From the NCBI GenBank assembly GCA_951406725.2, contig OX597816.1, forward strand, positions 80,476,001-80,540,000: 64,000 nt of DNA, written 5' to 3'. The DNA comes from Octopus vulgaris (Eukaryota). Position numbers and translations under genes: made by a program. Below are positions 3,208 to 22,275 of the stretch, piece by piece. Numbering within the stretch: position 1 is the stretch's first letter; each line of letters begins with the position of its first letter. The notes below the pieces were generated by a model, which did not search any database, was not told the origin of the DNA, and saw nothing but the letters and a program-made list of their open reading frames with translations.

Positions 3208-3793
<586 letters not shown>

Positions 3794-3834
3794 CGTTTAA
3801 TATTGTTTAATATTGTTTAACATTGTTAATAATT

Positions 3835-4520
3835 TTTCAGATACTCTATCTTCTAATTAGCCTTAAGAATAAACGACGTTATTTACCCACACTTTAACAT
3901 CTTCTAATTTTTTACCCACACTCTAATATCTTCTAATTAGCCTTTTTACCCACATTTTAAATATTTGTTAATATATTTTCAGATACTCTATCCTCTAATT
4001 AGCCTTAAGATTAAATAACGTTTTTACCCACACTTTAACTTTTTCACCCACACTTTAATATATTTTTGAATACTGTATCTTCTAATTAGCCTTAAGATTA
4101 AATAACGTTTTTTACCCACACTTTAATATAATAGTAATATTGTTAACATATTTTCAGATACTCTATCTCCTAATTAGCCTTAAGATTAAATAACGTTTTT
4201 ACCCACAAACTTTAATATTGTTAATATTAATAATACTCTATCCTCTAATTAGCCTTAAGATTAAATAACGTTTTTACCCACACTTTAACATTTTTACCCA
4301 CACTTTAATATATTTTTGAATACTCTATCTTCTAATTAGCCTTAAGATTAAAAAAAACGTTTTTACCCACACTCTAATATAATATTAATATTGCTAATAT
4401 ATTTTCAGATACTCTATCTCCTAATTAGCCTTAAGATTAAATAACGTTTTTACCCACAAACTTTAATATTGTTAATATTTTTTTTCTTTTCAAATACTCT
4501 ATCTTCTAATTAGCCTTAAT
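3835..4520 (+). repeat. Tandem array in the putative 5' UTR of copy A: ~57-bp core plus AT-rich linker, with a ~250-bp higher-order duplication
   Basis: The core atactctatcttctaattagccttaagattaaataacgtttttacccacactttaa starts at ~3841, 3983, 4070, 4158, 4233, 4320 and 4409, with partial copies at ~3926 and 4494. Units at 3983-4232 recur at 4233-4493. Confidence 0.92.
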
Positions 4521-4580
4521 ATCTTCTTGTCTTCTCTCGAACATAGTTAGATAGATAAACAAATAGACAGATCATCCAGC

Positions 4581-5491
4581 ATGTCCAGAGCATGGAGACC
4601 TGACGAACTAGATTTATTCGTACGAGCCTGGAAGTGCGCCGACGGAGATAGCCCTAGCGAGGTGATTGCGGCTGCGCTGAAGAACAAAGGCTACAAGAGG
4701 ACAGCGGCTCAGATGGAGCGAAAGAGACGGGAATTCGTGCGCTCATATGCGCTTATACGGTCGCACATTGGCGCACTTGATGCCATCTTTGAGAACGAGC
4801 GGGGCAAAGATGGCAAGAATGGAGACGATGAAAGAAGTCACCCCCACCTGGTAGACGCCCGGGAGGAGGTTTTGAATGAGAAACCTGCCCGGGAAGTGAA
4901 CCCAGGAGCAAGTTCTCCAACCGGCAGCAAGGGCCATGGAGACGGAGAACCCGGTGAAGAGGTAGAGGGAGGAGGAAGAACTAAAAGAAGGGCTGGAAGA
5001 GCTAAAGGAAAAGAAAAGCTCAAGCAGGACCAAAGGGTGAAAAAACCAGGAATAGAAGTGGAACCGCAAAAGATGGAAACAAACAGCGCACACGGGTGTG
5101 TAGGTTCTACCTGAGAGGTTCCTGCTGGCATGGAAAGGAAGGTGCAGGCTGCCGCTTTGCACATCGGGGACCCTGCCACAGAGACACGAGGCAGATGGAC
5201 AAACCATCAACACAAGGAAAAGAAATGGACCACGCACCACTTGCCCCAAAGCGGAGGTACGCAGATGTTGTGCGTGCCACAAACCGCCAACATGATGTTG
5301 TCGAAAGGGCAGCTGCTGAGCAACAATCATTTTTGTGCATGGCACAAAAGATTGTACAGCAGCTGACCTGGCTTTATCAAACCCAAGCCCGCAGGTGGGA
5401 CTACCCACTATATACCAGACCACCACAGCAAACAGACCCAGGATGGACACCGCCGGCAACAACGTACACCTCACCTCGATGCTCCTACTGA
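4581..5491 (+). CDS. LINE ORF1, copy A: trihelix Myb/SANT-like domain, charged linker and CCCH zinc finger; one frameshift near 5007-5020
   Basis: N-terminus W-x3-E-L...IAAALKNKGYKRTAAQMERK matches the GT-1/Myb_DNA-bind_4-like pattern. CRFYLRGSCWHGKEGAGCRFAH is C-x7-C-x8-C-x3-H. The two track ORFs join if one A is restored in ggaaaagaaaag, and the result is collinear with copy B. Confidence 0.8.
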
Positions 5492-8346
5492 ACATCAGAG
5501 GACTGCAAACACTCAGTAACAGGACAAAGATCCCGTTCCTGAGAGACTTTGTTGCATGCAATCAAGCCTTATGCATAGCACTTACAGAAACGCACCTGAA
5601 ACCGGACATAGCAGATGCGGAGTTACACATACCACAGTATGCTGTACTACGGACCGACAGGAAAGAAAGGAGTCATGGAGGTGTTGCTATGTACATCCGG
5701 GAGGACCTCACACCCCAGGTCCTCTTGTCATACTCAAACTCGGTGTGTGACACACTAATTGTACATATTAGGCAACTTGATGTAGTTGTGTGTGCTACAT
5801 ATCGCCCTCCAGATGCCCCAAGCCATGTGGGCAAGTTTGAAGACTGCCTTATAAAAATAGAAGAAATTCTAACCACATTAGAACAACACATAGGTGTGCT
5901 TCTTATGGGAGACTTCAATCTGCCCAATGTCAGATGGCCCGAGGGCCTTTCTCTCCCAGGAATGACAAGATGTGAACGAGGACAGGCGAGGTCCCTCCTG
6001 AACCTCATCAACACCCTGTACATGGAGCAGGTAATACTCCAACCAACCAGGGCAGGTAACACACTGGATCTCTGCTTCACAAATGACATGGATCTCATCC
6101 ATAATGTGAAAGTGACACCGACACTACTCTCGGATCACAACATGATAGAGCTGACCATGTACGGGCCAAAAGAGAGCACGGACATGCAGCCTACAAGAAA
6201 CCCTCAGAATCTTTCCAGCTTGAACTACCATAAGGCAAACTGGAAACAAATTGAGAAAGAGATCCTCAAACAAAACTGGCCTAAATGTCTCTCCTCGCCA
6301 GACATCGACGTGAAACTTCAACAATTCATGTCTGTAATGCAAGCCATATGCTACAAATGTGTCCCAGAGAGAAAGGCCACTGTACACAAGAACAAAATCC
6401 CCAGAGAGAGGAAAATTTTAATGAGACGGCGTACAAAATTTTCAAATCGCCTAAACAAACAGATTGAAAGCAGTGAAAAGTCCCGCCTAAAAATAAAACT
6501 GTTGGAAATCGAAAAATGTCTGCAACTCTCCCATGAAAAAGAAAGAGCAGACAAAGAAGCCTGGGCTATAGAAAACATAAAATCTAACCCCAGAGCTTTC
6601 TACAGGTATGCCAAAGAAACAGCTACAGTGCACTGTAGAATAGGGCCACTCCTCGAAAAGGATGGCACACTTACAGGAAAACCAATGAGGGTAAGTGAAA
6701 TACTGAATGAGCAATTCAAGAGTGTTTTCACTCCACCCCTTGGGCATCTCCAAATCACCAATCCAACTGACTTTTTTACCACTGCAGATATAAAATCAGA
6801 GGCGGCGACGATAGATTACATCGATATAAAGGAAGACGATGTAACCAAGGCTATAGATGAAATGAAAACAGACTCAGCTACTGGCCCCGATGGATTCCCG
6901 GCAATCCTCCTAAAAGCATGTAAGAGAGTCCTAGCAAGACCACTGCAGTTCCTCTTTCAGAGCTTCCTTGCAGCTGGCAAACTTCCAGGAAAACTGAAGG
7001 AAGGTAAAATATGCCCCATTCATAAAGGAGGTAGCAGAGCAGAAGCCAAGAACTATAGACCTATCTCTCTGACCTCACACATCAGCAAGGTCATGGAACG
7101 AATAGTCAGAAGGAAGCTGATCACCTTCCTTGAAGAGAATGACTTGCTGCCCGACACCCAACATGGTTTCCGACCAGGGAGAAGCTGTTTAACTCAGCTC
7201 CTACAACACTATGACTGGGTGCTGAAACGGCTGCTCAACCACTCAAATGTGGAAGTGATATATCTCGACTTTGCAAAGGCCTTTGATAAAGTCGATCATG
7301 GAATGATATGTCACAAACTGCATGATCTCAACATAGTTGGAAAACTGGGAGAATGGCTTCATGACTTTCTGAAGGATAGAAGTCAGGTGGTAGTAGCCAA
7401 TGGGGCCACCTCCATTAACACACAAATAGTGAGCGGTGTTCCGCAGGGCACTGTTCTGGGACCACTACTGTTCATAATGGCCCTCTCAGACATGCCCTCA
7501 GCCACGCAGAGAGCCACGATCACAAGTTATGCAGATGATACAAAAGTTTCACAGGCAATACAGAACCCTGAGGACACTAAACACCTGCAATGTGAGCTGG
7601 ACGAAATATACAAGTGGGCTGAAAAGAATAGCATGCAGTTCAATGCTGGAAAGTTTCAAGCTTTATACTATCAGCATGCAAAACTGAATGCAATACCCAA
7701 TGAATACACTGGACCCGGAGGGATTGCAATCCCAGAGGCACAATCAGTGCGTGACCTGGGTATTCACATGAGTGATGACGCGACCTTTCATGTACATGTT
7801 GCTAAACTGACAATGAAATGTAGACGGCTGGCTGGATGGATTCTTAGAACCTTTAGAACAAGAGAACAAGAAACCATGATGGTCCTCTGGAAGACACTTG
7901 TCCTAAGCCACTTTGACTACTGCTCTCAGTTATGGTCACCATCCAGTGTCAAGTTGATCACAGAGCTCGAGGCGATCCAACGTAGATATGCAATAATATA
8001 CATCTGGAAGATCCTGGAGGGACGTGTCCTGAACTTTGGCATCGAGAGTTACGCAAATGCCAGAACTGGGCGCCACTGCGTGGTGCCTAGGACTCCAAAC
8101 CTGCCATCAAGATGTAGGACAAGATTCTGTGATAGCCTGGGCTTCCGAGGCCCACAGCTCTTCAATATCCTCCCGAAGAACCTGAGAGACCTGCATGGGG
8201 TGGATACAGATGTCTTTAAAATGAAGCTGGATCTCTTCCTGTCAGGTGTCCCAGATGAACCAACTTCACGGCAGGAGGGGCAGATGAGGGCAGCTGCATC
8301 GAACTCTCTCATGCACCAAATAGCAGTTGCTAGAAAGCCTCCATGA
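5443..8346 (+). CDS. LINE ORF2, copy A: AP endonuclease plus reverse transcriptase, with an in-frame 93-nt deletion near the C-terminus
   Basis: APE motifs LNIRGL, LTETHL, YRPP, GDFN, LDL, SDH. RT motifs [41 protein letters not shown]. First ATG at 5443; the track start at 5335 is GTG. Confidence 0.95.
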
Positions 8347-8372
8347 AGTGAAACCAAGTAGCAACACCAAAT

Positions 8373-8434
8373 GGCGGTGCCCCAGCATGGCCACAGCTCA
8401 TAAGCTGAAACTAGAATCAATCAATCAATCAATC
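8373..8434 (+). other. LINE 3' tail: conserved box, CAGCT-cata-AGCTG stem-loop and (AATC)5
   Basis: Hairpin at 8394-8407; nearly identical in copy B (12238-12299). Confidence 0.7.
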
Positions 8435-8445
8435 ATATACATATA

Positions 8446-8501
<56 letters not shown>

Positions 8502-8730
8502 TATACACATACATATATATACATATATATACATATATACATATATATACATATATACATATATATACATATATACATATATATACATATATACACATAT
8601 ATACATATATATACATATATATATATATACATATATATATATACATATATACATATATACATATATACATATATACATATATATATATACATATACATAT
8701 ATATACATATATACATATATACATATATAT

Positions 8731-8826
<96 letters not shown>
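8435..8826. repeat. (TA)n/(TATACA)n microsatellite, 3' flank of copy A
   Basis: Visible directly. Confidence 0.95.
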
Positions 8827-8864
8827 ATAAATCATATATATATATAGAGCATCATATCATATCA

Positions 8865-9097
8865 TGTGGTGGTGAGCACATTTCCCGGACAAGGTTGTTT
8901 TGTATGAGCAGCACACTTTATTTAGTTCACTTAACTATATATATATCCCAAGTTATATCGGCCTTTGCTTTCTTTTAGATACCATCGGTAGCGTGGAGAG
9001 AGGAAAGTGATATGCATGGGCGATTGCTGGTCTTCCATAATGAAACTTGTCTGCACTTTTTCCCCAAAAGAGAACTTTCTAGGTGCAATCTAATGAT
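8865..9097 (+). mobile_element. Degraded CORE-type SINE, same family as 37185-37490
   Basis: gcgtggagagaggaaagtgatatgcatgggcgattgctggtcttccataa matches the reverse complement of ~37265-37315. Confidence 0.55.
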
Positions 9098-9131
9098 ATT
9101 ATATATACATACATATATGTATGTATATATG

Positions 9132-9284
<153 letters not shown>

Positions 9285-9593
9285 AAAAAATGAAGTTCGA
9301 AAATGCTGCTGTATTATACAATTTTTAATTTTTATATATACATTATAACATGTTTCAGTTCCTGAAATGAACTTTATCAAAAAAAGTTATATATAAAAAA
9401 AGACAGCTCATGCCGTCAAACACAAGAAATTCATTTATAATACACAACGGAGTCAGACATCTTAGAGTTCATGTATAGTTGATATATAGTTCATGTATAG
9501 TTGATATATAGTTTGAAGTATATATGTTCAATAGGGTATATGCATATATACGTATCAATACAAAAATATAGTGGTATATATATATATCAATCA

Positions 9594-10117
<524 letters not shown>

Positions 10118-10435
10118 AATAAAGAATTTGGAGACATAAAACATTGTAATATTATCGGTACAGTTTCATAAGGTTCCATTTGGTCATCCTTGAAGTGAAC
10201 ATGTTTGTGAGATTATATATATATATGGCTGTAAATGTAATATGTGACAATTATAGCATTTTTCCGATGGCCGGATAACTGAAGAGATGGAGACGTGGAT
10301 TCCCACCCCGGCATCCGAAACTTGGAGTGTTATCATGTCTACCGAATAATTGTTACATATTACATTTACAGATAAATTCCTCTATTTCCATAATATCGAG
10401 GTCTCTTTCATTTTGTTTTCTTACCATTTTTATCA

Positions 10436-10473
<38 letters not shown>

Positions 10474-10477
10474 TATA

Positions 10478-10615
10478 CCAGTATTCTACTGTTTTTAATA
10501 AATTGCTGCTTTAATTGCTCTATAAATTATTTATATATGCAAAACATAATTATAATCTCTTCATTTTCCAATCTGATTGTGAATCTCATTATCCTTGTTA
10601 CTTTATACTGAAAGA
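10478..10615 (+). repeat. ~138-bp dispersed direct repeat, copy 2
   Basis: Matches 1214-1351. Confidence 0.85.
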
Positions 10616-10849
10616 ATGAAAGGCAAAATTCAAACCCGACGGTATTTGAACTTAAACCGTAAAGTCGAAAAAAATGCCTCTTATCATTTTCTTCGACGTG
10701 ATAATGGTTCTACAAGCTCATTGCGTACGTGGCCCATAAAATAAGTACCAATTAACCTTGTACGACCAGTTGAATAGTTTATATCCCCACCCACCAAAAC
10801 CGACATCACAACCCACTAAAAATCAAGAGCTTAGTACAAGAGATATATT

Positions 10850-11175
10850 CTTCCCGTACTCCGTCGGTTACGACGACGAGGACTCCATTTGATCCGACCA
10901 ACAGAACAACAGCCTGCCCGTAAACTTAGGTGCAAGTGGCTGATCACTCCACAGACAGGAATAACCTTAGCAAAGTTCACAGAAAGATCCAGCGTGATGC
11001 TAGATTCGACATTGATGGCCCTTTAGAATTACAGGTGCTACTCATATTTGCCACCCTATTGGACTGGAGCTACGTGATGTAAAGAGTCTTGCTCAAGATT
11101 ACAACGCCCTGCCGGATGTCGAACTCTTACGATCATGAGCCGAATACAGCTACCATCTGAACCACGTGCCTTCAC
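10850..11175 (-). mobile_element. tRNA-derived CORE-type SINE
   Basis: Minus strand has a head gtgaaggcacgtggttcagatggta...gagttcgacatcc, then CORE-like cttgagcaagactctttacatcacgtagctccagtcc (family assignment from recall). Confidence 0.65.
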
Positions 11176-11654
11176 ATAAATTATATAAATGAGAGAGATC
11201 CTTATGATATTCTGAGTTGGCATTTCTACCAATTAAAGTAAATTCTTTTTCTTCAACCAGCAAATGGACTCATATAATATAAAAGATAAAGTCTCGTTTA
11301 CGTTTAGTTACAATAACCAAGACAGTGATATTTGTTTTTTAAATTTCGATACGCTCTAACAGTAATTATAGACATACTTTGTAAGATATAATGGATATTC
11401 CGAGCATATAATTGTTTGTTGGCTGATTAATGAATACATACGTACGAGAAAAAATATTCACATGCGAAGAACTATGTTTCCAGCCTAAAAAAAAAGAAAG
11501 GTGTTTTCTTTTTTTCTGACTAATGTATGGAAATGGTTCATAAATCACAATCCAACGAAATAACAAACTATGATAATACACAAATGCGCGCGCACACACA
11601 TACCGAAACAAACATACACAAATAAACAAACAAAGTACACACACACACACACAC

Positions 11655-11656
<2 letters not shown>

Positions 11657-11705
<49 letters not shown>

Positions 11706-11752
11706 ATATATATATATATGTATGTGTATATATATATATATATATGCATGTG

Positions 11753-11813
<61 letters not shown>

Positions 11814-11846
11814 ATATATATATATATATGTATGTATATATATATA

Positions 11847-11877
<31 letters not shown>

Positions 11878-11906
11878 GTATGTGTATATATATATATATA
11901 TATATG

Positions 11907-11967
<61 letters not shown>

Positions 11968-11990
11968 ATATATATATATATATGTATGTG

Positions 11991-12021
<31 letters not shown>

Positions 12022-12148
12022 GTATGTGTATATATATATATATGTATGTGTATATATATATATTATATGTATGTGTATTATATATATATATATGTATGTG
12101 TATATATATATATATATATGTATGTGTATATATATATATATATATATG

Positions 12149-12237
<89 letters not shown>
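11657..12237. repeat. (TA)n/(TATG) microsatellite, 3' flank of copy B
   Basis: Visible directly. Confidence 0.95.
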
Positions 12238-12240
<3 letters not shown>

Positions 12241-12325
12241 TGATTGATTGATTGATTCCAGTTTCAGCTTATGAGCTGTGGCCATGCTGGGGCACCGCCA
12301 TTTGGTGTTGCTACTTGGTTTCACT

Positions 12326-15321
12326 TCATGGAGGCTTTCTAGCAACTGCTATTTGGTGCATGAGAGAGTTCGATGCAGCTGCCCTCATCTGCCCCTCCTG
12401 CCGTGAAGTTGGTTCATCTGGGACACCTGACAGGAAGAGATCCAGCTCCATTTTAAAGACATCTGTATCCACCCCATGCAGGTCTCTCAGGTTCATCGGG
12501 AGGATATTGAAGAGCTGTGGGCCTCGGAAGCCCAGGCTATCACAGAATCTTGTCCTACATCTTGATGGCAAGTTTGGAGTCCTAGGCACCACGCAGTGGC
12601 GCCCAGGTCTGGCGTTTGCGTAACTCTCGATGCCACAGTTCAGGACACTTCCCTCCAGGATCTTCCAGATGTATATTATGGCATATCTTTCCCGCCTACG
12701 CTCCAGGGAATATAATTTTAATCTCTTGAGTCTTTCCCAGTAGCTTACATTCTGCATAGAGGCTATCTTCTTCGTGTAGCTTCGTTGGATCGCCTCAAGT
12801 TCTGTGATCAACTTGACACTGGATGGTGACCATAGCTGAGAGCAATAGTCAAAGTGACTTAGGACAAGTGTCTTCCAGAGGACCATCATGGTTTCTTGTT
12901 CTCTTGTTCTAAAGGTTCTAAGAATCCAGCCAGCCAGCCGTCTGCATTTCATTGTCAGTTTAGCAACATGTACATGAAAGGTCGCGTCATCAGTCATGTG
13001 AATACCCAGGTCACGCACTGATTGTGCCTCTGGGATTGCAATCCCTCCGGGTCCAGTGTATTCCTTGGGTATTGCATTCAGTTTTGCATGCTGATAGTAT
13101 AAAGCTTGAAACTTTTCAGCATTGAACTGCATGCTATTCTTTTCAGCCCACTTGTATATTTCGTCCAGCTCATATTGCAGGTGCCTAGTGTCTTCAGGGT
13201 TCTGTATTGCCTGTGAAACTTTTGTATCATCTGCATAACTTGTGATCGTGGCTCTCCGCGTGGCTGAGGGCATGTCTGAGAGGGCCATTATGAACAGTAG
13301 TGGTCCCAAAACAGTGCCCTGTGGAACACCGCTCACTATTTGCGTGCTAATGGAAGTGGCCCCATTGGCTACTACCACCTGACTTCTATTCTTCAGAAAG
13401 TCGTGAAGCCATTCTCCTAGTTTTCCAACTATGCCAAGATCACGCAGTTTGTGACATATCATTCCATGATCGACTTTATCGAAGGCCTTTGCGAAGTCGA
13501 GATATATCACTTCCACATTTGAGTGGTTGAGCAGTTGTTTCAGCACCCAGTCATAGTGCTGCAGGAGCTGAGTTAAGCAGCTTCTTCCTGGTCGGAAACC
13601 ATGTTGGGTGTCAGGCAGCAAGTCATTTTCTTCAAGGAAGGTGATTAGTTTCCTTCTGACTATTCGTTCCATGACCTTGCTGATGTGTGAGGTCAGAGAG
13701 ATAGGTCTGTAGTTCTTGGCCTCCGCTCTGCTACCTCCTTTATGAATAGGGCATATTTTACCTTCCTTCAGTTTTCTTGGAAGTTTGCCAGCTGCAAGGA
13801 AGCTCTGAAAGAGGAACTGCAGTGGTCTTGCTAAGACTCTCTTACATACTTTTAGGAGGATTGCCGGGAATCCATCGGGGCCAATAGCTGAGTCTATTTT
13901 CATTTCATCTATAGCCTTTATTACATCGTCTTCCTTTATATCGATGTAATTTAACGTCGCCGCCTCTGATTCTATATCTGCAGTGGTAAAAAAGTCAGTT
14001 GGATTGCTGATTTGGAAATGCCCAAGGGGTGGAGTTAAAACACTCTTGAATTGTTCATTCAGTATTTCACTTACCCTCATTGGTTTTCCTGTGAGTGTGC
14101 CATCCTTTTCAAGGAGTGGCCCTATCCTACAGTGCACCGTAGCTGTTTCTTTGGCATACCTGTAGAAAGCTCTGGGGTTAGTTTTTATGTTGTCTATAGC
14201 CCAGGCTTCTTTGTCTGCTCTATCCTTCTCATGGGAGAGTTGCAGACAATTTTCAATTTCCAACAGTTTTATTTTCAGGCGGGACTTTTCACTGCTTTCA
14301 ATTTGTTTGTTTAGGCGATTTGAGATTTTTGTGCGCCGTCTCATTAAAATTTTTCTCTCTCTGGGGATTTTGTTCTTGTGTACAGTGGCCTTTCTCTCTG
14401 GGACACATTTGTAGCATATGGATTGCATTACGGACATGAATTGTTGAAGTATCATGTCGATGTCCGGCGAGGAGAGACATTCAGGCCAGTTTTGTTTGAG
14501 GATCTCTTTCTCAATTTGTTTCCAGTTTGCCTTATTGAAGTTCAAGCTGGAAAGATTCTGAGGGTTTCTTGTAGGCTGCATGTCCGTGCTCTCTTTTGAC
14601 CCGTACATGGTCAGCTCTACCATGTTGTGATCCGAGAGTAGTGTCGGTGTCACTTTCACATTATGGATGAGATCCATATTATTTGTGAAGCAGAGATCCA
14701 GTGTGTTACCCGCTCTGGTTGGTTGGAGTATTACTTGCTCCATGTACAGGGTGTTGGTAAGGTTCAGGAGGGACCTCGCCTGTCCTCGTTCACATCTTGT
14801 CATTCCTGGGAGAGAAAGGCCCTCGGGCCATCTGACATTCGGTAGATTGAAGTCTCCCATGAGAAGTACACTTATGTGTTGTTCTAATGTGGTTAGAACT
14901 TCTTCTATTTTTAAAAGGCAGTCCTCAAACTTGCCCATATGACTTGGGGCATCTGGAGGGCGATATGTAGCACACACAACTACATCAAGTTGCCTTATGT
15001 GTACAATTAGTGTGTCACACACCGAGTTTGAGTATGACAAAAGGACCTGGGGTTTGAGGTCCCCACGGATGTACATAGCAACTCCTCCATGACTTCTTTC
15101 TTTCCTGTCGGTCCGTAGTACAACATACTGTGGTATGTGTAATTCCGCATCTGCTATGTCCGGTTTCAGATGCGTTTCTGTGAGTGCTATGCATAGGCTT
15201 GATTGCATGCGACAAAGTCTCTCAGGAACGGGACTTTTGTCCTGTTACTGAGTGTTTGCAGTCCTCTGATGTTCAGTAGGAGCATCGAGGTGAGGTGTAC
15301 GTTGTTGCCGGCGGTGTCCAT
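12326..15321 (-). pseudogene. LINE ORF2, copy B (APE+RT), complete length but with a 1-nt deletion near 15193
   Basis: Nearly identical to copy A ORF2. Copy A gccttatgc versus copy B gcctatgc splits it into the 80-aa and 960-aa track ORFs. It retains YWERLKRLKLYSLERRRER. Confidence 0.9.
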
Positions 15322-16164
15322 CCTGGGTCTGTTTGCTGTGGTGGTCTGGTATATAGTGGGTAGTCCCACCTGCGGGCTTGGGTTTGATAAAGCCAGGTCA
15401 GCTGCTGTACAATCTTTTGTGCCATGCACAAAAAAGATTCCTGCTCAGCAGCTGCCCTTTCAACAACACGTTGGTGGTTTGTGGTACGCACCACATCTGC
15501 GTACCTCCGTTTTGGGGCCGGTGATGCGTAGTCCATCCCATTTCCTTTCGGTGGTTGGTTTCTGTGGCAGGGTCCCGGATGTGCAAAGCGGCAGCCTGCA
15601 CCTTCCTCTCCATGCCGGCAGGCACCTTTCAGGTAGAACCTACATACCCGTGTGCGCTGCTTGTTTCCATCCTTTTTGGCATATGGACAGTTAGGTTTGC
15701 CTCTATCCCTGGCTGCCTTGCCCCTTGGCTTTGTCTGAGTTTTAGCTTTAGTTTTTCCTCTTTTTTTTGGCCTCTCCATCTCCATGTCCATGGCTTTTGG
15801 TGCCGGTAGGAGCATCCGTACCTGGGTTCACCTCCCGGGCAGGCCTCTCGTTGGAGTTTTCTTCCTGGGCGTCCACCAGGTGGGGGTGACCCTCCTCATC
15901 TGCGCCCGCGTCTCCATCCTTGCCATCTTTACTTTGTTCGCGTTTTTCGCTGTTAAAAATGGCATCCAGTGTGTTTATGTGCGATCTTACAAGTGCGTAT
16001 GAGCGTACGAACTCTTGCCTCTTCCGCTCTATTTGTGCTGACGTCCTTTTGAATCCTTTGTTCCTTAGTGCTGCCGCAATTACGTTACTTGGACTTTCTC
16101 CGTCAGCGCATTGCCATCCTCGTAGGAACCACGACAGTTCATCACGTTTCCAAGCTCTGGACAT
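15273..16164 (-). CDS. LINE ORF1, copy B (trihelix Myb/SANT-like plus CCCH), frameshifted at an A8 run (15761-15768)
   Basis: MSRAWKRDEL...IAAALRNKGFKRTSAQIERK and CRFYLKGACRHGEEGAGCRFAH; removing one A joins the 138-aa and 180-aa ORFs. Confidence 0.8.
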
Positions 16165-16449
16165 TCTTGATATATTATCTATCTATCTAATTATGTTAAG
16201 TTATATTAATCCAATAGTAGGGGGTAATAGAGAAAGAGAGCGTCCGTGCACTTAAGGAGAGATTGGGAGCCAAGAGAAGAGAGCAAGAGAGAAGAGGAAG
16301 AGGAGATACTGAGTGCTGAAGGAAGATAGAGAAAGCCTCTATGCCCTCAGAGAGAGATTGAGAGCTGAGAGAGGAGAGCTGAGACAGACAGAGAAGCGCA
16401 AGGGAGAGAACCGAAGAGACAGACAGAGAGATCTGAAGAGACAGATCTC

Positions 16450-17312
<863 letters not shown>

Positions 17313-21924: not shown

Positions 21925-22275
21925 AGCTGAACCGCATCATTCTTGTCCCATAAAGGGGTAGATATATCAGGATACGGCTCGTATCGTGACATTAGCCTGA
22001 TGTCATGCTCAGCCAAACTCTTTAACCGTATCATGTTCAGTCGAATCGGAGACTCTATCGAAACAGTGCTCAGATCAAACCAATACCGTTTCGTAAAGGC
22101 CGCTCCACCCTTGAAGGTATTTTGACTCATTAAAACATCTCAATGAAGAAAGATACGTCTTTGTGCGCCATCTTTGTAGATTTTGCCAAAGCTTTTGACT
22201 CGGTTCTATAGCGAGCAAATGTTTCAGATATTCTTTGCCTTAGGCATAACGAATGAAATTGTAAATGTCATCCAC
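21925..22275 (+). pseudogene. Degraded RTE-type RT fragment, opposite strand
   Basis: KG...YRDISLMSCSAKLFNRIMFSRI...LRSNQYRF, then AIFVDFAKAFDSV and MFQIFFALGITNEIVNVI. Confidence 0.75.

Follow-up and report, generated by a model that had tools for sequence, protein, structure and literature searches.

Recombination within ORF1 as the probable source of differing 5' modules in two neighbouring LINE copies of Octopus vulgaris

The window analysed here, 64,000 nucleotides (nt) of Octopus vulgaris DNA (GenBank assembly GCA_951406725.2, contig OX597816.1, positions 80,476,001 to 80,540,000), contains two copies, A and B, of a long interspersed nuclear element (LINE). Both are dead retrotransposons that lack long terminal repeats (non-LTR) and are of the apurinic/apyrimidinic endonuclease (APE) type, lying 3.8 kb apart as inverted neighbours, tail to tail. 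The copies, which are 95% alike in their 3' parts (3' UTR, ORF2, end of ORF1 and CCCH finger), probably represent two LINE subfamilies, one of which took its 5' module (about 74% alike) from an older family by recombination at about position 5070, inside open reading frame 1 (ORF1). The process is known from the 5' replacement of L1 elements, and the architecture of ORF1 is unusual. An earlier note made from the sequence alone had proposed that cassettes consisting of the 5' untranslated region (UTR) and ORF1 are exchanged by recombination. Exchange of a 5' module was supported by a six-fold contrast at silent sites, an abrupt change in identity and the occurrence of both 5' types in independent runs, but the exchanged unit was not all of ORF1 and consisted of the leader, a Myb/SANT-like domain and a linker. 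The parts concerned are as follows.

3794 to 8434 (start at about 3794), forward strand: copy A, a full-length, inactivated LINE with APE and reverse transcriptase (RT), flanked by (TA)n tracts
12238 to 16449, reverse strand: copy B, full-length and inactivated, its tail toward the tail of A, flanked by (TA)n tracts
3794 to 4539, forward strand: leader of A, eight degenerate AT-rich units of about 88 nt, a family feature with variable unit number
16165 to 16449, reverse strand: leader of B, 285 nt, 69% C+T, two degenerate units of about 95 nt
4540 to 4580, forward strand: still-homologous stretch of about 40 nt above the ATG, with an A-B similarity reached by 1 of 1000 shuffles
4581 to 4799, forward strand: N-terminal three-helix domain of A ORF1, predicted to be Myb/SANT-like from a PF13837 match, a structure model and fold matches
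15946 to 16164, reverse strand: Myb/SANT-like domain of B ORF1, with 54 of 73 residues the same as in A
4800 to 5068, forward strand: low-complexity linker of A ORF1, 73% identical to B and frameshifted in A
5068 to 5072 in A (forward strand), about 15675 in B: main breakpoint, from change-point analysis and a contig joint of run X15 (4864 to 5068)
5099 to 5164, forward strand: CCCH zinc finger of A ORF1 (C-x7-C-x8-C-x3-H), with the silent divergence of ORF2 and a profile matching Muscleblind CCCH fingers
15273 to 15827, reverse strand: C-terminal frame of B ORF1, with the CCCH finger at 15644-15579 and a frameshift relative to the N-terminal frame between 15827 and 15748
5320 to 8346, forward strand: ORF2 frame of A, first ATG at 5443, APE endonuclease and RT
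12326 to 15244, reverse strand: ORF2 of B, APE and RT, interrupted by a 1-nt deletion at about 15195

Divergence between A and B was analysed on the two full DNA copies by identity per region, change-point analysis and counts of synonymous and non-synonymous differences. Identity was 75% at 4581-4790, 73% at 4791-5068, 93% at 5069-5185 (the CCCH finger), 84% at 5186-5329, 100% at 5330-5528 and 95% at 5529-7980 (ORF2). The best single change-point was found at 5072 and the best pair at 5068 and 5332. An abrupt rise of identity had been reported near 5325, where the 199-nt identical tract described below begins, but the largest step lies at about 5070, inside ORF1 and before the CCCH finger. The earlier count of 19 differing residues among the first 73 of ORF1 was exact, and the many silent changes described there were recovered. 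Codons 1-70 contained 32.8 synonymous differences over 49.8 sites and 20.2 non-synonymous differences over 160.2 sites, or 0.66 per synonymous site (1.6 with Jukes-Cantor correction, near saturation and imprecise) and 0.13 per non-synonymous site. The synonymous difference was 0.56 in codons 71-125, 0.11 in the region of the CCCH finger (3 of 28 sites) and 0.11 in the 923 codons of ORF2, where the non-synonymous difference was 0.023. In Fisher tests on silent sites, the Myb-like domain differed from ORF2 (p 1e-17) and from the finger (p 2e-6), and the finger was indistinguishable from ORF2 (p 1.0). The CCCH finger and the C-terminal half of ORF1 travel with ORF2. Purifying selection was evident on both sides of the joint, with a ratio of non-synonymous to synonymous divergence (dN/dS) of 0.09 in the Myb-like domain (p 7e-13) and 0.20 in ORF2 (p 3e-18). 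Between the ORF2s, 116 of 2450 DNA columns differed (95.3% identity), and the proteins were 94.6% identical; their likeness is high, and the wording "nearly identical" slightly overstated it. The divergence profile, the selection on either side, the breakpoint and the mosaic were thus observed in the copies themselves. A sharp joint at which an older 5' part meets a younger 3' part, by which L1-style 5' replacement is recognized, was present, and the X15 contig rejoins A at the same place, 5068.

The family was represented by public contigs of 4 of the 24 listed runs (X1, X3, X9 and X15), compared as contigs only with positions 4345-6000 of A, the sole reference; the comparison showed 40 of the 147 variant rows and some of the loose ends. 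Other copies and runs contain both 5' types and both variants of ORF2. Array units were joined to the start of an A-type ORF1 in contigs of X9 (4439-4670) and X15 (4427-4599), both with letters differing from A, and joints going back by 84 and 68 nt indicated a variable number of array units. Pieces resembling B were found in X1 and X15 (23 of 27, 13 of 14 and 29 of 30 letters), and an X15 contig with a B-type linker, whose loose end resembled B in 29 of 30 letters, departed from A at 4864 and rejoined it at exactly 5068. In ORF2, the letter of B was the other letter of the family at 10 of 10 listed sites, with both letters at no less than 20% of X3 depth at 9 of the 10, and an X9 contig spanning 5662-6000 (339 aligned nt) differed from A by one letter. 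Since array units are joined to A-type ORF1 in other runs and vary in number, the array belongs to the element. It is extremely improbable that the array lies outside the element and that A is a 5'-truncated copy which landed in or beside a local minisatellite. The array does end in a short CT-rich piece like the leader of B, and target-site duplications are unreadable inside (TA)n, but the two other runs that join the array to A-type ORF1 bear two organism labels and letters unlike A, the loose ends in X1 and X3 include unit-number variants and the first letters of the array, and the array was found nowhere else in the window. Contig depth approximately doubled at about 5070 in X1 and X3, not in X15; it was not used as evidence since depth cannot rank the parts.

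Several results weigh against a single clean exchange at this joint. The region 5186-5329 is intermediate (84%, p 0.02 versus ORF2), and A-like X9 contigs diverged more toward the 5' end (about 7%, 4%, 1%, 3%, 1% and 0.3%), which together suggest a gradient or several events, not one clean crossover. No crossed combination of leader and Myb-like domain appeared in the contigs displayed, outside which lay 664 loose ends and 107 variant rows, and allele shares were noisy, with site 5682 at 2% in X1 and 100% in X15 under the same organism label. The estimate for the finger was based on 28 synonymous sites, the match of the finger to distant elements, described below, was weak, and the comparison used two full DNA copies only. 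The 5' gradient would also fit a history with no recombination at all, in which the 5' part evolved faster through host pressure on the promoter and N-terminus, CpG decay and repeat slippage. The CpG density of 62-86 per kb in the Myb region, versus 21 in ORF2, and the borderline similarity retained between the leaders point the same way. Such a history is nevertheless unlikely, as the excess divergence is silent, identity changes abruptly from 73% to 93% at about 5070, and selection on the protein is strong and of the purifying, not the diversifying, kind. CpG decay was insufficient, since 36 of 164 non-CpG sites differed (22% versus about 5% in ORF2). Changes specific to A were likewise insufficient, since the contig letter was that of B at 5 of 10 listed sites in 4581-4790, leaving 48 of 53 differences.

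For the preferred recombination between LINE families, a reconstruction of route, direction and date can be proposed. One lineage most likely acquired the leader, Myb-like domain and linker from a co-existing older family, with a crossover that fell where the conserved finger has its 5' edge, just upstream of it at about 5070. The exchange probably occurred while target-primed reverse transcription was under way, by a template switch or the formation of a heteroduplex, or through the joining of a 5'-truncated cDNA to an older copy, and it would have taken place in a replicating ancestor, not at this locus. The leader would presumably act as an internal promoter, the CCCH finger would bind RNA and the Myb-like domain DNA or chromatin. 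Among 18 such domains, those of A and B were sisters (support 0.985), so the donor would be a nearer family than any sampled. More distant families, seen in the same runs as loose ends at 5295-5305 and 5536 and also among proteins, are possible donors. The loose ends at these positions were considered as proof of further swaps and rejected as such; the two tested matched neither copy (17-19 of 30 letters); they may belong to distant families.

One tract at the start of ORF2 departed from the general profile.

5330 to 5528, forward strand (B 15434-15236): tract of 199 nt without a difference between A and B, which covers the overlap of ORF1 and ORF2 and holds a rare shared letter at 5375

At the divergence rate of ORF2, an identity run of 199 nt has a p of about 1e-4, uncorrected. 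At 5375 (about 15389 in B) both copies carry T, whereas in each of the 4 runs C accounted for 99.6-100% of the depth of the contigs, and the His encoded by C was present in two of three distant ORF1s having this helix. Later local conversion or polishing cross-talk is rather likely to have homogenised this tract, one site carrying the case; because the overlap of ORF1 and ORF2 is dual-coding, divergence would be lower there anyway. A second identical run of 188 nt (8225-8412) covers the end of ORF2 and the 3' UTR and may reflect constraint or conversion. The earlier note had itself raised local gene conversion as a source of the ORF2 similarity as a whole, by which the ORF2s of two old, diverged elements would have been equalised between inverted neighbours. 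The spacing and tail-to-tail arrangement of the copies, the two identical runs and the rare T shared at 5375 would suit it, but this explanation failed for ORF2 overall and is very unlikely. The ORF2s differ at 122 sites with the dN/dS of 0.2 that marks divergence while replicating, and an A-like ORF2 was present in the run of another organism (X9). Since this ratio is accompanied by B letters shared with the family at all listed sites, local conversion did not produce the two ORF2s, which are variants of subfamilies.

The leaders were as contrasting in composition as had been described, with an AT-rich array in A (749 nt, 75% AT, eight units of about 88 nt) and a CT-rich leader in B, whose two-unit structure was equalled by none of 1000 controls. 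Clear homology stopped about 40 nt upstream of the ATG (4540-4565 in A, 16197-16171 in B), in agreement with the earlier observation. The claim that the leaders are unrelated was not established. They gave no overall alignment, but the last 43 nt of the A leader aligned with the B leader at a score matched by none of 500 dimer shuffles; Markov controls reached it in 1-22 of 300 cases under two scoring schemes and in 80-112 of 300 under a third, and 1 of 372 other window stretches scored as high. Borderline similarity therefore persists and varies with scoring scheme and control, and, as judged from the two sequences, unrelatedness appears unproven either way. Because the neighbouring domain is near saturation, homologous non-coding leaders would look like those of A and B, and a separate capture of a UTR is unnecessary. 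The main reason for the difference between the leaders would be that they were carried along by a module whose silent sites are near saturation, after which they expanded into tandem units. The motif TAATTAG, which we take to resemble a homeodomain site, occurs nine times in the A leader (3854-4507) and once in the conserved stretch above the ATG of B (16193).

The N-terminal domain of ORF1 is predicted to be a three-helix helix-turn-helix domain of Myb/SANT-like type. It matched PF13837 with an E-value of 3.4e-4 and 21.4 bits, under the gathering cut-off of 27, and 7 of 20 members matched at E 0.1. A structure model built from 20 sequences reached a predicted local distance difference test (pLDDT) score of 89.7, with helices at residues 7-19, 25-35 and 42-60; with 2 sequences as input, a first model had been poor, at pLDDT 65.5. 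The best fold matches were SANT, Myb, TEA and trihelix (GT-1) domains with Z scores of 7.4 to 6.7, where values below 8 can reflect a common arrangement; the top rows had Z 7.4 (root-mean-square deviation (rmsd) 4.9, 68 aligned residues) and Z 7.1 (rmsd 2.5, 58 aligned). Foldseek returned nothing at E 0.001 for either model of the domain. In the ESM Atlas, all hits scored below 0.9 and serve as leads only; the named ones were mostly Myb/SANT, and P0063 gave no usable hit. The domain resembles Myb/SANT and trihelix domains (PF13837; SANT of DNAJC2, 2m2e; Myb of RAD, 2cjj; GT-1, 2jmw) in its three-helix fold and long basic helix 3, but it is only 18-24% identical to these structures, lies below the Pfam cut-off and Z 8, and its DNA binding is putative. 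SANT domains need not bind DNA.

The earlier note had also suggested that the UTR and the DNA-binding domain may co-evolve as specificity pairs. In such pairs the Myb-like domain of the ORF1 protein would bind its own leader and would have to be exchanged together with it. The breakpoint does leave the leader and the domain on one side, the fold with its basic helix 3 would suit DNA binding, the tandem array of A could supply repeated sites, and the array was joined to an A-type domain in two other runs. In the predicted helix 3, however, only 4 of 21 positions differ between A and B (A42S, M45I, R50Q and I59V). The residues R40, Q44, R47, K48 and Y56 are the same in both, and R40, Q44, K48 and Y56 are retained in 16-17 of the 18 aligned sequences, A and B included. 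With a dN/dS of about 0.09, the domain bears no sign of a switch in specificity, and adjacency on the RNA accounts for the joint transfer. Co-evolving pairs were thus unsupported and are unlikely, simple linkage being enough to explain the co-inheritance.

LINE ORF1 proteins are usually regarded as RNA binders and chaperones. In both A and B, ORF1 is frameshifted and split across two frames. Length variants at 5008-5013 in other copies preserve one ORF1 frame, and the related proteins P0046, P0061 and P0063 are single ORFs with the order Myb-like domain, linker, CCCH finger, conserved helix and Q/P tail; the split in A is therefore damage to the copy, not a programmed frameshift. Neither the four pieces of ORF1 nor the 20 aligned members gave a match at E 0.1 to RRM, CCHC, Transposase_22, PHD or esterase domains. 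On its predicted domains, the ORF1 of A and B is outside types I-IV (Khazina and Weichenrieder; Metcalfe and Casane) and falls into type V, unclassified. No LINE ORF1 with Myb/SANT and CCCH was described in the literature searched; Repbase, Dfam and subscription journals lay outside its scope and may hold such an annotation. By word search, a Myb-/CCCH-type ORF1 was absent from the accessible text of PMC4120745, PMC13343379, PMC5203782, PMC11203168, PMC10294476 and PMC3520747, and in the main text and three supplements of PMC4120745 that were searched, "Myb" and "CCCH" had 0 occurrences.

Relatives of the ORF2 protein showed 86%, 63-64% and 57% identity, the last being from Argonauta hians. 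For ORF1, a HMMER search gave 26 hits, of which 23 were used and three long proteins matched over 18-24 positions were excluded; 4 of 10 proteins looked up were named, and the named relatives were from Octopus sinensis and O. vulgaris. Word-indexed searches with the N-terminal part (16 candidates) and the C-terminal part (27 candidates) found nothing at E 0.001 within the length ranges, and a metagenome scan with the C-terminal part gave no match. The same type of scan with the ORF2 alignment, over 3 of 64 collection parts, found 80 loci with best-segment identities of 26-50% and no close copy. In an RT tree of 109 sequences, built without named reference elements, the loci L002, L004 and L006 (ORF2 33-34% identical) fell in the same clade as A and B (support 1.0). 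We take A and B to be CR1-like from their tail type and ORF2 motifs. The two ORFs, the absence of an RNase H family from ORF2 and the PHD-type ORF1 in the clade are compatible with the CR1 group or Jockey superfamily (CR1, L2, Crack, Daphne and others) and are not diagnostic.

In the ORF1s of these three loci, CCCH-type fingers stand in tandem, of which the first could be aligned to the octopod finger, and are followed by an FL motif and a Q/P-rich tail. Their finger matches had the three best domain E-values (0.006-0.09) among 69 upstream ORFs. At the N-terminus, Pfam detected PHD in one of the three (L004, E 9e-7), and a PHD-like cysteine pattern was seen by eye in L002 and L006; the octopod Myb profile matched none of these N-termini by hhalign (probability 0.2) or hmmsearch. 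These comparisons weakly suggest that the part upstream of the finger may be an exchangeable unit at both time scales. The ORF1s themselves (L002 958-2553, L004 3-2750, L006 247-1683) consist of a helical N-terminal unit, a PHD-type finger and tandem CCCH-type fingers, and the helical and PHD unit is present twice in L004. This type is not among the ORF1 types in the accessible text of PMC4120745.

According to the accessible parts of the papers cited in this paragraph, recruitment of new 5' UTRs and recombination between families are established for L1 (PMC3600994, PMC5381506); in mouse L1 the breakpoints lie within ORF1 and ORF2, and template switching and heteroduplex models have been proposed (PMC3600994). 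The octopod elements resemble mouse L1 (Sookdeo et al. 2013, PMC3600994; Boissinot and Sookdeo 2016, PMC5381506) in their mosaic families, a young 3' and older 5' part, and leaders of tandem monomers. They differ in that the host lineage is octopod, ORF1 has no Transposase_22 match, a predicted Myb/SANT-like domain is part of what was exchanged, and the leaders are not established as non-homologous. ORF1 shuffling and reticulate evolution are also on record for CR1/L2 elements (PMC4120745; PMC13343379). With those described by Metcalfe and Casane (2014, PMC4120745) the present elements share a constrained ORF2, variable and shuffled ORF1 domains and, in the clade, PHD-bearing ORF1s like that of L004. 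That study, however, covers deep lineages with RRM, CCHC, PHD, esterase and Transposase_22 domains, whereas the subfamilies here are 95% alike and the joint lies inside ORF1. In O. vulgaris, 13 CR1 families with 787 insertions have been reported as recently active, alongside a list of 169 CR1 consensus families (PMC13282606), which places co-existing CR1 families on record in an octopus; "ORF" occurs 0 times in the text of that paper, and the parts consulted do not describe structure or recombination. The brain-expressed octopus LINE is a single-ORF RTE element (PMC9115989).

The exchange would extend the recombination pattern of mammalian L1 to an invertebrate lineage. Its joint falls within ORF1, with a domain predicted to bind DNA on one side and a finger predicted to bind RNA on the other, and the same boundary separates the octopod ORF1s from the distant ones. 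Should the leader or the (TA)n target be bound by the Myb-like domain, this would offer a direct test of a LINE regulating its own promoter or steering its insertion; if the domain binds neither, this is an ordinary mosaic LINE family. A bolder reading, which we regard as unlikely, holds that the octopod lineage replaced a PHD-type ORF1 front by a Myb/SANT-like domain recognising its own tandem leader or (TA)n target, and that families swap leader and Myb-like domain as a promoter-regulator cassette at a fixed joint before the CCCH finger. If that were true, the retrotransposon would encode and swap its own transcription factor together with its binding sites.

The remaining features of the copies concern ORF2 and the ends.

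8347 to 8434, forward strand: 3' UTR of A, terminating in (AATC)5
12238 to 12325, reverse strand: 3' UTR of B, terminating in (AATC)5

PF14529 and PF00078 exceeded the Pfam cut-offs in ORF2 of both copies, with APE preceding RT, and were the only families detected there by Pfam. In A, ORF2 lacks 93 nt at 7983, an in-frame deletion. The ORF2 frame is open for 123 nt above its first ATG, overlapping the end of ORF1 (window 5320-5491), and a similar upstream extension was seen in P0003 and P0005, which may bear on the mode of ORF2 translation. Self-BLAST of the element yielded the array of A alone and no long terminal repeats. Folding of the 3' UTR was no better than that of shuffles (z -1.19), and Rfam gave no match across 3700-16600. 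Tracts rich in (TA)n at 3212-3793, 8435-8820, 11658-12237 and 16450-17304, which make up 7.8% of the window, adjoin all four element ends. They hint at a (TA)n target preference, with n = 2 and tracts that may have grown after insertion; with all four ends abutting them, target-site duplications are unreadable.

Elsewhere in the window, distant LINE ORF2 fragments were found at 2-322 and 22089-22205, with 31% identity over 64 residues and 43% over 42 residues to ORF2 of A. Two AT-rich stretches at 1201-1340 and 10470-10610, each following a TA/TG microsatellite, looked alike by eye and are possibly a short interspersed repeat.

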